A stretch of 4,389 nucleotides of DNA from positions 1 to 4,389 of the IMG/VR virus record IMGVR_UViG_2531839666_000025, one strand, 5' to 3'. Position 1 is the stretch's first letter. Each line of letters starts with the position of its first letter. Shown piece after piece: positions 1 to 4,389 of the stretch. Made by a program: the position numbers and the translations under genes. This stretch comes from a virus (lineage: Duplodnaviria; Heunggongvirae; Uroviricota; Caudoviricetes). A model generated the notes under the pieces. The model was not told the DNA's origin and did not search any database. It worked only from the letters and a program-made list of their open reading frames with translations.

Positions 1-673
1 TTATTCCTGTGCCCAGCCAACCCTGTATGCCAGGATCTCATCCGCACTGCTCAGCGATTCCAGGTCCTTCTTCATGGTGCGCTGGCGAATGTGGATTTCC
101 ATCCCTTTAGTGAACATCGCCTGCTCTGCCGCTTCACTCAGCGCAATAAGCTCTTCTGCTGTCACCGGCACATCATTGTTTTCCGCATCCGTCCAGAAAA
201 ACGCCTCCGGCAGTTTCCCCGCTTTCGCTGCCGCCACCGACGGCTCAAGACGCGTCTGCGTTGACTTCCCGTAGTCCCATTTACGCCCATTGTGCTCAAA
301 CGTGTAGTTCGCCGCTTCCATCTCATTACGCCAGGCGTTAATTTCATCGCCCTTCATCCCGCGCGCTTTCTCCGCGGTCAGCAGGTCCGTGATTTTCTCC
401 CCGTCAAAAACCCCAGCGCCCCGAGATGTCAGCTTTGCGGTTTTCTTCCGTATCCGCCACCTCCACCACACTCTGGCCCACTGGCCACAGAACTGACGCC
501 ACCCTGCCGATGCCGGTAATGACTCCGGCACTGTTATAAACCACCTTCAGCGTCTCTGCTGAAAATAACGACTGACACTCATACCAGTCCTGACCATCCT
601 CTGATTTCAGGTACATCGCACCCGGCACATCCGGATTTTCCGGCGTGTATTGTCTGAAATTCTTTATGTGCAT
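1..673 (-). pseudogene. tfa: Tail fibre assembly protein (P2 gpG / Tfa chaperone family), reading frame broken by a 1-nt indel; intact equivalent would be about 223 aa
   Basis: Two overlapping minus-strand ORFs (673..404, 89 aa; 531..1, 176 aa) together resemble one Tfa. The first matches my recollection of the P2 gpG N-terminal region (SEDGQDWYE...KVVYNSAG...SVVEVADTEENRKADISGRWGF). The second matches the conserved C-terminal region of the tfa at 2905..3495 (INAWRNEME...RLEP...FFWTDAENNDV...). ATG at 673 is preceded by GGGAGGA with an 8-nt spacer; stop at 1..3. Confidence 0.75.
406..414 (-). other. Homopolymer tract (plus CCCC/AAAAA, minus TTTTTGGGG) where the tfa-1 frame switches
   Basis: Minus strand reads TGG GGT TTT TGA (W G F stop) in the upstream frame and GTT TTT GAC GGG GAG AAA (V F D G E K) in the downstream frame. 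Removing one T from the T5 run gives a continuous ...GRWGFDGEKITDLL... matching P2 gpG ...GKWMFKDGAVV... as I recall it. Confidence 0.7.
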
Positions 674-714
674 CTGTAAGTCCTCCCGGTTACATATCTG
701 ACAGGTGATGCGCT

Positions 715-2448
715 TTATAACGAAAAATACTCACGCCCCGGCGCTCCTGACGACACATACTCACCAACACCAACGGTGCGCCAGTGAGAGCCATCAAACG
801 TCATCTGCAGCGGCCTGTAGTAAATCGTTGTAACACGGCTGACGCCGCCCTGAGTGTTCCCCGAAAGCCCTGTAATGACTGAACCATCAGCCAGATTAAC
901 TGACCAGCCATGGTCCCCCTCCTGCAACTCATACGTTACCGGATTCCCCAGCCTGAAGCCCATGACACGACTCTTCCCGTCATCTCCTGATGCCCCCGGC
1001 GGCCCCATCGGCCCGGTTTCTCCACGCTCACCTCTGGGACCGGGGTCGCCTTTCTCCCCTTTCGGTCCCTGCGCTCCCCGCGGACCAGCGGGGCCTGTTG
1101 CTCCCGTTTCACCTTTCGGACCCTGTGCTCCGGGGTCGCCTTTCTCTCCTTTCGGACCGGGAACACCACCTCCTGCTGCAGCCTCTTCTGCCTTTGTTTT
1201 CGCTTCATTTGCCACATCCATTGCCGCCTTCACGGCCTTCGGCGTGGCTGCCTTTGTTTCGTCATTACTGCCAGTATCACTGCTTAACTGCACCACACCT
1301 TTCTGCGTCGTGCTGGCATCCCGCTGGCTGACCGTATCCGGTTTGTTTTTTGTGCTGTAATCCACCCGCCAGTGGAAATACTGTGTGTCGCCGTAAACCG
1401 TACAGGTACAGACCGTGCCATTAATAAACCCCGTTGCACCGTATTCGCCAATGGTGACCCGGACTATGGCAGCCTCATACGTCCCCATCACCTCAATGAC
1501 ACAGCCACCCAGATTGAGTTTTCCCGGTCCGACATCCGTGATGACTTTATTCATTGACGCAGGCAGTGATGCCTTCATCATCCAGTAAGGCTGGTCAAAT
1601 GCCCCTTTTTCTTTCAGCCAGGCGACAAACTCGCTCGTGGTCCATTCACCGGCCCCCGTATGAATGTCCCGCCCGTATACTCTGGCTGCTCCCACGGTGT
1701 TCAGAAACTTCACCTTATCCGGGATATCGTCACCGTTTTTCGCTTTCTCCAGGCATCCGTCCGCTTTGTCCATTGCCGCTTTCACCGCTTTCGGGGTGGC
1801 TGCCTTCGTTTCATCATCACTGTCCGTTGCGCTGCTTAACTGCACAATTCCCTTCTGTGCCGTCGTCGCATCCGGTCCTCCCGGCTCGCCTTTTTCGCCC
1901 TTCTCTCCCCGTTCACCTTTCACACCCTGAAGCCCCTGTGGTCCTGTCTCACCACGCTCACCCTTTGGCCCCCGCTCGCCGGTATCGCCTTTTGGCCCGG
2001 GAATACCCTGCGGCCCGGTGTCCCCCTTATCCCCCTTCGGTCCCCGCGCATTCTCTGCCCGTTTTTTTGCCTCCTCCGCACTGGCTGCGGACGCTTCCGC
2101 ACGTTTCAGGATTTCCGCTGCCACCGCTTCCAGCTCTGCAAGGGCTTTCGGGTAATACTGTGCGTCTTCCAGGTCCATCAGAAATTTATTCAGCGTTCCC
2201 GGTGCAGAATCCGCCTTCACCAGAATGTCACCCACATATGACGGCGCGTACCCTTCCGTGTTCAGCGTCACCCGGTACAACCCCGGCTCAACATCCATAC
2301 TGTAACTGCCGGTTTCCCCCGGCTGACCATACGCCACCGTGGTGACAATCACCGTCTCCGTTGTGCGGCGCGCTTTCAGCTCTATCGTGCATCCCGGTAC
2401 CGCTTTTCCCGTACCATCCTTCAGCACACCCGATATTCTGACTGTCAT
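715..2448 (-). CDS. stf: Side tail fibre protein, 577 aa: lambda Stf-like N-terminal domain, two collagen-like Gly-X-Y tracts, two tail-fibre repeat motifs, a central globular domain and a short C-terminal domain
   Basis: N-terminus [28 protein letters not shown] resembles lambda Stf [28 protein letters not shown] (from memory). Uninterrupted Gly-X-Y at aa 136-192 and 428-491. Motif [30 protein letters not shown] occurs twice (aa 196-228, 380-412). ATG at 2448..2446 preceded by GGGGGA; TAA at 717..715. Confidence 0.9.
976..1167 (-). repeat. Collagen-like Gly-X-Y coding tract 2 (about 21 triplets, stf aa 428-491)
   Basis: Translation [64 protein letters not shown] with Gly at every third position. 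The proline-rich plus-strand ORFs here are its antisense shadow. Confidence 0.9.
1213..1311 (-). repeat. Tail-fibre repeat motif, copy 2 (stf aa 380-412), a diverged direct repeat of 1765..1863
   Basis: [33 protein letters not shown]. At DNA level, ...ccattgccgccttcacggccttcggcgtggctgcctttgtttc... here parallels ...ccattgccgctttcaccgctttcggggtggctgccttcgtttc... in copy 1. Confidence 0.85.
1765..1863 (-). repeat. Tail-fibre repeat motif, copy 1 (stf aa 196-228)
   Basis: [33 protein letters not shown]; same motif as in lambda Stf ([28 protein letters not shown], from memory). Confidence 0.85.
1873..2043 (-). repeat. Collagen-like Gly-X-Y coding tract 1 (about 19 triplets, stf aa 136-192)
   Basis: Translation [57 protein letters not shown] with Gly at every third position. 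Confidence 0.9.
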
Positions 2449-2453
2449 GGATT

Positions 2454-2459
2454 TCCCCC
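2454..2459 (-). promoter_or_regulatory. Probable Shine-Dalgarno sequence of stf
   Basis: Minus strand GGGGGA followed by AATCC then ATG (2448). Confidence 0.5.
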
Positions 2460-2461
2460 AT

Positions 2462-2496
2462 AAAAAAACCGCAGTACCGGTTTCCCGGCCTGCGGT
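2462..2496 (-). terminator. Intrinsic (rho-independent) terminator, probable 3' end of the hok-like transcript
   Basis: Minus strand ACCGCAG-GCCGG-GAAA-CCGGuA-CUGCGGU followed by UUUUUUU: outer 7-bp stem, inner 4-bp CCGG/CCGG stem, GAAA tetraloop, then a T7 run. The T-tract ends 13 nt before the stf ATG. Confidence 0.7.
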
Positions 2497-2559
2497 AAAA
2501 TTTGTGGTTTGTTGGTGTTAAAACGGTGCCATCCGGCTGACCACCCTCAGCAACCGGTC

Positions 2560-2582
2560 GGCGGGGGATATTCTCCCCCGCC
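2560..2582. repeat. Perfect 9-bp GC-rich inverted repeat with a 5-nt loop, in the 3' untranslated region of the hok-like gene
   Basis: Plus strand GGCGGGGGA-TATTC-TCCCCCGCC (2560-2568 pairs with 2574-2582). No adjacent T-run on either strand, so it is more likely a structural or stability element than a terminator. Confidence 0.5.
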
Positions 2583-2590
2583 ACGGTTTC

Positions 2591-2731
2591 TTACTGCTTA
2601 CACTGTAAGAACGCCGCAATCTCCGCGCCCGCTATCCGGAACCGGAACTCGCACAGTGAACTGTGGGTGATCCAGATAATGAGCACTACCGTGATACAAA
2701 TCACGGTGGTTTTTAACGGTTTTTGCGACAT
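2591..2731 (-). CDS. hok: Hok/Gef-family type I toxin, 46 aa (small single-pass membrane peptide)
   Basis: Hand translation of the minus strand gives MSQKPLKTTVICITVVLIIWITHSSLCEFRFRIAGAEIAAFLQCKQ. It has a hydrophobic helix (TVICITVVLIIWIT) followed by the Hok hallmark SLCE..R.....E(I/V)AAF..(C/Y)K; compare R1 Hok ...[28 protein letters not shown], recalled from memory. ATG at 2731..2729 preceded by AAGGAG with a 9-nt spacer; TAA at 2593..2591. Not in the supplied ORF track. Confidence 0.8.
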   Translation of the reverse strand: MSQKPLKTTVICITVVLIIWITHSSLCEFRFRIAGAEIAAFLQCKQ

Positions 2732-2740
2732 AAACGCTTG

Positions 2741-2746
2741 CTCCTT
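2741..2746 (-). promoter_or_regulatory. Shine-Dalgarno sequence of hok (AAGGAG) with an adjacent anti-SD
   Basis: Minus strand CCUCUCC-GUAAAA-GGAG-CAAGCGUUU-AUG. The CUCC immediately upstream can pair with GGAG (plus-strand palindrome ctcc-ttttac-ggag, 2741..2754). Confidence 0.6.
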
Positions 2747-2876
2747 TTACGGAGAGGCGCTAACCTTTCACTTGCTTAGGATGAATGGTCAGGCCTCGGG
2801 TTAAACATGAATGTTTGTCCGGGGCCTTTTCACATCCGGCCTTCAGGTGTTCCCTCCGGCCATCAGCCAAAGGCAC

Positions 2877-2898
2877 CCGTGCATAATGTACGGTTTTT
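2877..2898 (+). terminator. Candidate plus-strand intrinsic terminator, possibly the 3' end of an antisense (Sok-like) RNA; speculative
   Basis: Plus strand CCGUGCA-UAA-UGUACGG (7-bp stem with one G-U pair, 3-nt loop) followed by UUUUUAUU. It lies antisense to the predicted hok leader, immediately beyond the tfa-2 stop. No convincing promoter found upstream. Confidence 0.3.
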
Positions 2899-2904
2899 AT
2901 TCTG

Positions 2905-3495
2905 TTACGTAAATACCGGCTCCTCACTCCCCCAGCCGGGCTGATAGCACAGTACATCACGGTATCGCGTCATCCCCGCAATCTCCTGTTTCATCTGTCG
3001 CTGTCTTTCGTGGATCCTGAAACCGTGCGCCACCATCGCCTGTTTCATGGCAACACCCAGCGCCTTCAGTTCATCAGCGTCTACCGCCACATCATGATTA
3101 TCCGCATCTGTCCAGAAAAAACGTTCCGGTAAATGTTCTGTCACTGCAAGCACGGGCTCCAGACGGCTCAGTGAGCGCTTACCTGCATCCCAGCGTCGCC
3201 CCTGCCATTCAAACACAATTTCTTTATTTTCTTCCTCATTTCTCCAGATGTTAATCCTGTCGCATGCCTTCTCTTTTTCCTTTTCCAGCATATCCTGACT
3301 TTCACGCCACGGTGTCACCGCTCCATACTGACCACCGGCAATGGCGGCAAACAGTTCACGCCATATCACATCGGGATCATGCGGCATCACAACGATATCC
3401 ATCCAGCACTCCCCCGACGGTAACTTCATTTCAGCATGAATGTTTCCGCTTTCGTCATACCTCGCATGACGGATTTCTGTAACGATCTCCGGCAC
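2905..3495 (-). CDS. tfa: Tail fibre assembly protein (Tfa chaperone family), 196 aa, apparently intact
   Basis: C-terminal two-thirds (DRINIWRNEEE...RLEPVLAVTEHLPERFFWTDADNHDVAVDADELKALG...) is paralogous to tfa-1; the N-terminal about 85 aa differs. GTG start at 3495..3493, 9 nt after the upstream stop, preceded by AAGGGGGG; TAA at 2907..2905. Confidence 0.88.
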   Translation of the reverse strand: MPEIVTEIRHARYDESGNIHAEMKLPSGECWMDIVVMPHDPDVIWRELFAAIAGGQYGAVTPWRESQDMLEKEKEKACDRINIWRNEEENKEIVFEWQGRRWDAGKRSLSRLEPVLAVTEHLPERFFWTDADNHDVAVDADELKALGVAMKQAMVAHGFRIHERQRQMKQEIAGMTRYRDVLCYQPGWGSEEPVFT

Positions 3496-3504
3496 AATCC
3501 CCCC

Positions 3505-4389
3505 TTAAAGCACATGAACCTTCTCATTTCCTGCCCGGAATAACGTGCCACCGTTACATAGAACGCTGATCGTCACGCGACAGTTATAATTCAGGGGGTT
3601 ATGAAAGGCGCGCACGTAACGATACCGGACATAAATCCGGTTGCGGTTTCCCCTCCCCTTTGCCGGAAGCGTGAATCTGTAAATCCAGTCATAATTTTCC
3701 CACACCTTATGCTTCAAATTCCCGGGCCCCCATTCTCCTGACGACCAGACAGTGGCAATTCCACCATCTGCACTATCAGTGCCGACACTGACTTCCCACC
3801 AGGCAGAAACAAGACCAGGATTGCCCTCAGCTCTGAAGGCTATCTTCATGTTAACATCAAAAAAACGATCGAAGTTTTCCCCGTCAACATTCAGAAAAGG
3901 GATCCATTCGTTATCTCTCTCCTTTACACCATCCCGTGAGCTGACACCACTGAACACAACTTTATTGATTTCAAACAGGGAGCGGTAATAAACATCGCCA
4001 AGAATATTACCGGCATCCACTGTTCCTTTAACGACGCAGTTTTCTGCAATGGTCACGTTATTCAGCGTGCCCGAGTTCGCACTGATATGTCCGCTGATGT
4101 CCGCATTACGGGCCGTCAGCCTGCCGTCCGGCGTCAGGGAGAACGTCGGGGGATTGCCGGACGAGGTGATGCTCACCGCAAACAACCGCTTCAGGAACAC
4201 ATCGTTCATGAACAGCTGATTCCCCTGCGCCACAAACAGCGGCGTGGTGTTGCCGTTCTCCGGGTTAATCATCGCGATACGGTCCGCCTGCAGCAGTATA
4301 TTGCTCAGGGGCTGGCCATCAGCATCCTCAATCCCCGCACCTATACCGGCAACATACGGAATGCCGTTTTTTGTTTCTGCACCTTCAGC
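3505..4389 (-). CDS. J: Host specificity / central tail fibre protein (lambda gpJ-like), C-terminal 294 codons; N-terminus lies beyond the window
   Basis: The frame is open from the window edge ([17 protein letters not shown]...) through the track ORF to TAA at 3507..3505. The segment [22 protein letters not shown]...[38 protein letters not shown] matches my recollection of lambda J ([18 protein letters not shown]...[41 protein letters not shown]). The last about 190 aa do not resemble the lambda J C-terminus. Confidence 0.8.

Follow-up and report, generated by a model that had tools for sequence, protein, structure and literature searches.

Gene order and operon setting

The window, by which we mean the whole 4,389-nt stretch of phage DNA analyzed here, carries every one of its sizeable genes on the minus strand (Table 1). 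Read in that direction, it opens with the 3' part of the tail tip gene J, which runs off the window and is found at full length upstream in one relative (L121), and it continues through a DUF4376 gene, a small hok gene, and the side tail fiber gene stf to the assembly-type gene tfa. The reading frame assigned to stf is the genuine gene, as the Pfam domain phage_tail_N spans residues 1-134 of its product end to end (E 3.7e-40); its N-terminus aligns to that of lambda Stf, which shows that the start codon is correctly placed.

Table 1. Features of the window, with positions counted from its first letter and listed in the direction of transcription of the minus-strand genes.
Feature	Position	Strand	Basis or remark
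J (tail tip) gene, 3' part, runs off the window	3505..4389	minus	Pfam Phage_Tail_Tip, E 1.9e-19
DUF4376 (tail-fiber-assembly-like) gene between J and hok, 196 aa	2905..3495	minus	Pfam DUF4376, E 2.2e-17
Candidate hok promoter, TTTACG-17-TACATT	2913..2885	minus	8/12 consensus match; -35 overlaps the DUF4376 stop codon
Predicted full-length hok mRNA, ~417 nt	2878..2462	minus	Fold and Rfam; 5' end inferred from the Rfam match
Candidate Sok antisense RNA, hairpin 2791..2826 followed by UUUU	2773..2830	plus	Placed by analogy to plasmid R1 hok/Sok
Candidate Sok promoter, TTGCTC-17-TAACCT	2738-2743 and 2761-2766	plus	Inferred
hok toxin ORF, 46 aa	2591..2731	minus	Pfam HOK_GEF PF01848, E 2.4e-11, 43.5 bits against a cut-off of 22
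Predicted terminator hairpin, 12 bp, one bulged A, GAAA loop	2497..2469	minus	ViennaRNA fold
U7 tract, abutting the hairpin stem directly	2468..2462	minus	Sequence
stf leader, 13 nt, Shine-Dalgarno-like GGGGGA at 2459..2454	2461..2449	minus	Sequence
stf, side tail fiber, 577 aa; phage_tail_N, collagen repeats, Phage_fiber_2	715..2448	minus	Pfam
tfa (DUF4376, tail-fiber-assembly-type), split by +1 T	1..673	minus	Pfam; alignment to relatives

The wider setting of these genes comes from other genomes. A search of 5,426 complete E. coli genomes and 50,697 phage records found no copy of the whole window; the best coverage was 74% and lacked the 3' end of J and the DUF4376 gene. The layout containing DUF4376 was found solely by looking up the exact protein in draft genomes, where it lies at the right end of a lambdoid prophage in the order tape-measure H-M-L-K-I-J-DUF4376-hok-stf-tfa, followed by chromosomal genes. 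Phage 1720a-02 and about 120 complete E. coli genomes carry the hok cassette directly between J and stf. This gene order places the locus at the distal end of a lambdoid late operon, with a hok cassette occupying the slot between J and stf. In RefSeq relatives, the gene at this position already bears the annotation 'Hok/Gef family protein', and our literature search found no published description of hok in the J-stf slot or of the junction it forms.

The single sign of decay in the 4.4-kb window is found in tfa, which is intact at 223 aa in relatives (L120-L124) and is split here by an insertion of 1 nt in a T-run at about 404-410, T5 here vs T4 in an alignment with phage 1720a-02 and E. coli KY177. 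This lesion is what would recommend the view that the prophage is decaying, having lost its late promoter or Q, and that stf and tfa are permanently silent. We consider such a history quite unlikely, as hok, stf, the DUF4376 gene, and the 3' end of J are all intact open reading frames, a full tail gene set is present in the draft genomes that have this layout, and the additional T could equally be a homopolymer sequencing error.

The hairpin between hok and stf

Between hok and stf, the minus strand reads, 5' to 3', ACCGCAGGCCGG GAAA CCGGU A CUGCGGU UUUUUU A UGGGGGAAAUCC AUG, in which the final triplet is the stf start codon (2448..2446). Nine of the 12 stem pairs in the ViennaRNA fold are G-C and one is G-U. 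The isolated hairpin has a folding energy of -21.2 kcal/mol (z = -4.66), which none of 200 shuffled sequences equaled, and its 71-nt context folds at -27.4 kcal/mol (z = -4.2). Exactly 13 nt separate the last U of the U7 tract from the ATG. An earlier note on this DNA had described a 12-bp interrupted stem with a GAAA tetraloop and a U7 tract ending at 2462, which proved accurate in every detail of sequence and fold, and it had correctly placed the stf ATG 13 nt past the terminator with a ribosome-binding site between.

Standard terminators are defined as a hairpin followed immediately by a U-tract of 7-9 nt (PMC9388147), and the stable, GC-rich hairpin found here, with an abutting U7 that falls within that definition, has the form of an intrinsic (Rho-independent) terminator. 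We thus regard the element as a genuine-looking predicted terminator, one that would be expected from established lambda biology to stop ordinary RNA polymerase efficiently. The hairpin is conserved among hok-stf loci, in which its sequence variants still fold, with energies from -18.6 to -23.8 kcal/mol. A simple terminator scan passed over it, probably on account of the bulged A, as such a scan would look for an ungapped stem. Together with the G-U pair, this bulge could make termination less efficient.

The terminator is oriented with the genes: it points along the direction of transcription because the plus-strand copy of the hairpin has merely UAAAAUUUGU as its tail. A bidirectional terminator is ruled out by this same tail and by the lack of any plus-strand gene needing one. 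A further structure in the 71-nt fold, a small second hairpin (UUAUGGG/UCCAUGA) in which the stf AUG would be occluded, was also set aside, being weak and absent from lambda and from more distant relatives.

The hok/Sok-type cassette and its boundaries

The sequence upstream of the hok reading frame may correspond to the leader of known hok/Sok systems. On the hok-sense strand, a full-length match to the Rfam sok family (RF01794) covers 2878..2720; it scores 55 bits (E 1.2e-10), slightly short of the gathering score of 59. On the assumption that the transcript begins where this match does, the RNA from 2878 to 2462 has a minimum free energy of -185.4 kcal/mol (z -7.5), and both the minimum-energy and the centroid folds pair a 5' arm at about 2877..2858 (GGUGCCUUUGGCUGAUGG...) with an fbi-like 3' arm at about 2543..2525 (...CAGCCGGAUGGCACC). 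Between the fbi-like arm and the terminator hairpin lie 28 unpaired nt. In hok systems, the full-length mRNA is folded back through its tac and fbi elements and is activated by slow processing from the 3' end (PMC9841398); the closure of 5' and 3' ends predicted here, with a terminator beyond fbi, matches the full-length hok architecture reported in that work. The candidate Sok RNA on the opposite strand folds at -23.6 kcal/mol (z -2.9).

The resemblance to plasmid R1 hok/Sok and the hok mRNA family extends from the Hok/Gef reading frame and the leader match, which lies just under the gathering threshold, to the tac/fbi-like closure, the stable hairpin after the stop codon, and an intrinsic terminator a few tens of nucleotides past fbi (PMC9841398). 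Unlike R1, the cassette described here sits in a phage tail operon rather than in a plasmid stability locus, its hok has a GGAG ribosome-binding site of its own 9 nt upstream, and no obvious mok with a standard start accompanies it. We found no clear mok frame of that kind; the overlapping frame is open from 2765, and its sole start-like codon is a TTG at 2699. Because of this, regulation of the cassette may not be exactly R1-like and may differ from that of R1 hok in detail.

In strain UTI89, a P2-like prophage carries a diverged hok copy whose terminator lies equally far past fbi and has the outer stem CCGCAG/CUGCGG in common with the one here, which argues that the terminator belongs to the hok cassette and travelled with it. 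The assignment of the hairpin to a hok cassette, made in the earlier note from the sequence alone, thus finds support in the UTI89 copy as well as in the Hok/Gef reading frame, the sok-family leader, and the predicted closure of the mRNA. Comparison with other layouts locates the edges of the cassette. At the upstream edge, homology with the usual J-hok layout starts between the -35 and -10 elements of the candidate hok promoter, and the equivalent promoter in that layout is TTGCCG-17-TACAGT. At the downstream edge, the P-EibA prophage, which has lom in the slot and a terminator in the same place before stf, becomes homologous to the window at the T-run; TTTTTTTATGGGRGAAATCYATGACAGT is in common, and the stems are unrelated.

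Genes that are added to phage genomes as transcription units with their own promoter and terminator, and that are expressed from repressed prophages, are known as morons (PMC3594210). Across relatives, the J-stf slot contains hok, lom, a lipoprotein-type gene, an internally deleted hok remnant, or nothing, so that the hok cassette is present, absent, or replaced between conserved genes, and it carries its own terminator. Its GC content, 0.50-0.55 vs 0.52-0.60 in the flanks, shows no clear step. A distinct base composition is a usual feature of morons and not a required one. In our reading, the hok/Sok-type cassette fits the definition of a moron, provided that the candidate promoter is active as lambda biology would lead one to expect. 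It resembles the lambdoid morons described earlier (HK97 gene 15 and others; Juhala et al. 2000 as summarised in PMC3594210) in being an extra unit between late-operon genes, with a candidate promoter and a terminator of its own and present only in some relatives; those morons are active in the repressed prophage, and late transcription runs through them (PMC3594210). It differs from them in showing no clear G+C difference from its flanks and in having a promoter that is so far a candidate.

The J-stf junction among relatives and the expression of stf

A terminator before stf is not peculiar to hok-bearing loci. Our sample of 76 viral-contig loci, whose encoded proteins are related to the Stf N-terminal domain at identities of 45% or more, yielded 29 distinct 80-nt sequences upstream of stf, and all 29 have a hairpin of -8 kcal/mol or lower followed by a T-run, vs 13 of 374 random 80-nt windows from the same loci (3.5%). 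The T-run ends 11-17 nt from the stf ATG in 26 of the 29. About nine unrelated stems are represented, comprising hok-type variants, lom-type variants, a lambda-type stem, and several others, and the stf leader with its ribosome-binding site is conserved in hok-, lom-, and no-insert-type loci. One of the 29 sequences (L066) is disrupted by an insertion sequence, and its AT-rich hairpin is probably irrelevant. In some loci (L006, L012, and others), only the -10 element of the hok promoter, the tac arm, the fbi arm, and the terminator are kept, with the rest between them deleted. In L109, L110, and L113, a J-type gene ends 60-78 nt before stf and the terminator is all that lies between, with no insert. 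Among the relatives sampled, then, a predicted terminator before stf is ordinary and appears to be the default design of the family.

Phage lambda itself provides a close parallel. Past the lom stop codon in its genome (NC_001416, terminator at ~19612-19639), the sequence runs AGCCCGCCGGAACCGGTGGGC-TTTTTT-G-TGGGGTGAAT-ATG(stf). It contains a 9-bp hairpin and a T6 that ends 11-13 nt before the stf ATG, the range reflecting an interrupted T-run. Lambda and the window thus have in common an insert in the slot between J and stf, and then a GC-rich hairpin and a T-run, after which a short leader holding a GGGG-type ribosome-binding site leads to the stf ATG. The lambda insert, lom, is the classical occupant of the slot (PMC7067206) and a moron expressed in lysogens (PMC3594210, PMC7067206); stf and tfa are late genes. 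The two differ in cargo, an outer-membrane protein in lambda and a type I toxin-antitoxin system here, and in the sequence of the hairpin, which in lambda is unrelated (AGCCCGCCGG..CCGGTGGGCT). Luk and Szybalski are said to have described, in 1983, t'J terminators past J in lambda, and our literature search on lambda terminators past J found nothing.

How stf is transcribed depends on whether it has a promoter of its own. Our scans covered the sigma-70 consensus. They found no sigma-70-like site on the minus strand of the hok-stf interval, either at the threshold of the tool or at a relaxed 8/12, and the candidate hok promoter was the only site of at least 8/12 on the minus strand from 2960 to 2440. 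With no promoter-like site before it, stf probably lacks a promoter of its own, in keeping with the earlier suggestion that there is no room for one between the terminator and the gene. Scans limited to the sigma-70 consensus would pass over a promoter that overlaps the hairpin or belongs to a class other than sigma-70, and such a promoter would make the terminator irrelevant to stf. We find this extremely improbable: with just 13 nt from the U-tract to the ATG, the -35 and -10 elements would fall in the hairpin, and the sequence of the hairpin is wholly different among hok-, lom-, lambda-, and no-insert-type loci, which have only the T-run and the ribosome-binding site in common. Because the stem sequences are unrelated between junction types, the hairpin DNA cannot hold a conserved stf promoter.

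We propose instead, with a probability of roughly 80%, that the hairpin is a moron terminator that sets the 3' end of the hok mRNA and insulates stf and tfa from the hok promoter in the lysogen, and that polymerase modified by Q passes it in lytic growth. Ordinary RNA polymerase that initiates at the hok promoter in the lysogen would stop at 2462; termination there would give the hok mRNA the defined 3' end required for tac/fbi fold-back and slow 3' processing, and it would keep hok transcription out of stf-tfa. In lytic growth, polymerase arriving from the late promoter and carrying Q would ignore the hairpin and U-tract, and stf would be translated from its own ribosome-binding site just past the U-tract. 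Read-through of internal terminators by polymerase carrying Q is textbook biology. Q-loaded polymerase keeps the terminator hairpin from forming and, being processively termination-deficient, can continue for tens of thousands of nucleotides, and all late genes depend on Q, as the late operon starts with a terminator (PMC9388147). Q-dependent antitermination of the lambdoid late operons therefore offers a way past a standard hairpin and U7 of the kind seen here (PMC9388147), with Q, its binding element, and the late promoter located outside the window. Because the locus lies at the distal end of a lambdoid late operon, antiterminated read-through is the expected route to expression of stf and tfa, and the inference drawn in the earlier note that these genes depend on an antiterminated late transcript is sound in that context, given that no promoter-like site lies between hok and stf. 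The related suggestion that the hok cassette is what makes stf conditional on antitermination finds no support in this form: a terminator is also present with lom, with the hok remnant, with other inserts, and with no insert, and late genes depend on Q in any case. Dependence on antitermination would thus be the default of the family and not a consequence of the hok insertion.

The proposed insulation need not be complete. The hok promoter faces stf with nothing else between, and the stem of the terminator has a bulge and a G-U pair, so that partial termination might allow a constitutive hok promoter to support low expression of stf and tfa in lysogens. This seems very unlikely to us, since an energy of -21 kcal/mol and a perfect U7 are features of efficient terminators and the variants in relatives all remain within the range of stabilities given above. 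We also know of no role for side tail fibers in the absence of virions, which we count against such leakage.

Alternatively, the terminator may act as an attenuator that stops part of even Q-modified transcription, in which case stf and tfa would be expressed below J and the core tail genes and the conserved position of the hairpin would reflect tuning of stoichiometry. The three loci with a terminator at the J-stf boundary and neither a moron nor a lysogenic promoter point toward a function linked to stf itself. These hairpins could equally be remnants of lost inserts or stops for stray transcription by polymerase without Q, and the processive resistance of Q-loaded polymerase to standard terminators (PMC9388147) speaks against attenuation, which we consider unlikely.

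A bolder reading is that selection has kept the terminator 11-17 nt ahead of the stf ATG as a checkpoint common to the whole family, even where no moron is present, with a replaceable stem and a fixed T-run and ribosome-binding site. Such a checkpoint would gate stf and tfa to Q-modified polymerase, and the boundary between hairpin and T-run would serve as a preferred recombination joint for swapping morons such as hok and lom. We offer this as a tentative idea that is somewhat more likely to be wrong than right.

The kind of element described here is already known, as a moron terminator inside a Q-antiterminated late operon is textbook, and our findings open no new regulatory question. What may be modestly new is the comparative pattern: across lambdoid phages, a terminator appears to stand before stf at an almost constant distance, its T-run and the ribosome-binding site being conserved and its stem interchangeable. 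Taken alone, the junction in this window is of little importance, and its value is as a clean example of how a cassette expressed in the lysogen may reside in a late operon without switching on its neighbors. The observation that the lambdoid J-stf junction almost always has a predicted terminator directly before stf may help in annotating the transcription units of prophages and in predicting which of their genes stay silent in lysogens. It may also guide the engineering of side tail fiber swaps, in which the terminator would have to be either kept or deliberately removed when stf is replaced.

The J region and the tail fibre assembly genes

The receptor-binding 3' part of J and the adjoining DUF4376 gene have no near match among 5,426 complete E. 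coli genomes and the phage collection examined; the exact 196-aa DUF4376 protein is present in 268 blocks of draft assemblies. This segment appears to be a variant of J accompanied by a chaperone-like partner of its own. At the other end of the window, tfa, the DUF4376 gene downstream of the side tail fibre gene stf, is split by one additional T in a T-run (T5, where phage 1720a-02 and E. coli KY177 have T4), such that a premature TGA is created. In draft-genome relatives tfa is intact, at 223 aa. The split copy is either a pseudogene or the product of a homopolymer sequencing error.

Features in the window and in two other loci
Locus	Position	Strand	Feature	Details
Window	404-410	-	T-run in tfa
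Window	2446-2466	-	small hairpin	UUAUGGG / UCCAUGA; ~-6 kcal/mol
Window	2877-2893	+	7-bp hairpin, then TTTTTATT	overlaps hok promoter -10; -8.6 kcal/mol, z -1.5
Window	2930-4020	-	3' J part and DUF4376 gene	DUF4376 gene tail-fibre-assembly-like, wedged between J and hok
L066	~1-1500		two ORFs upstream of stf
L117	2380-2520		diverged hok copy

Hairpins at the stf start and the hok promoter

The small hairpin at the start of stf could pair the AUG with part of the ribosome-binding site. Relatives that have lom in place of hok between J and stf retain it with a G-C pair turned into G-U, but it is absent in lambda and in more distant loci. On the opposite strand, the hairpin at the hok promoter is weak, and could block antisense transcription, in the direction of Sok, from entering the DUF4376 and J genes.

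Altered hok cassettes and stf loci elsewhere

In L066, a locus with a 5'-truncated stf, the two upstream ORFs are oppositely oriented and probably resemble IS66-family accessory proteins; an insertion appears to have removed the usual terminator together with the stf start. The diverged hok copy in L117, a prophage of E. coli O145:H28 RM12581, is positioned after an Ail/Lom gene and has no terminator after fbi, the 3' arm of the hok mRNA. In place of the terminator, the fbi sequence holds the start of an annotated 133-aa ORF, which itself contains a terminator-like hairpin (GCCTGCCTTAAAAAGCAGGCGTTTT).

An internally deleted hok cassette is found ~100 nt upstream of stf in L006, L012, L014, L016-L019, L027, and L030. 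What is left upstream of the deletion is the promoter -10 (TACATTAT) with the 5' arm GGGTGCC; these run almost directly into the fbi arm GGCACCC and a terminator that has a GUAA loop and T8. The remaining unit of ~95 nt, a promoter and terminator without the toxin gene, may encode a small RNA or may be just a scar. In two otherwise near-identical loci, the hok ORF is frameshifted, in L020 just after the start codon (A4 versus A5) and in L025 by a change near the C-terminus. These frameshifts suggest that the hok toxin has been repeatedly inactivated.
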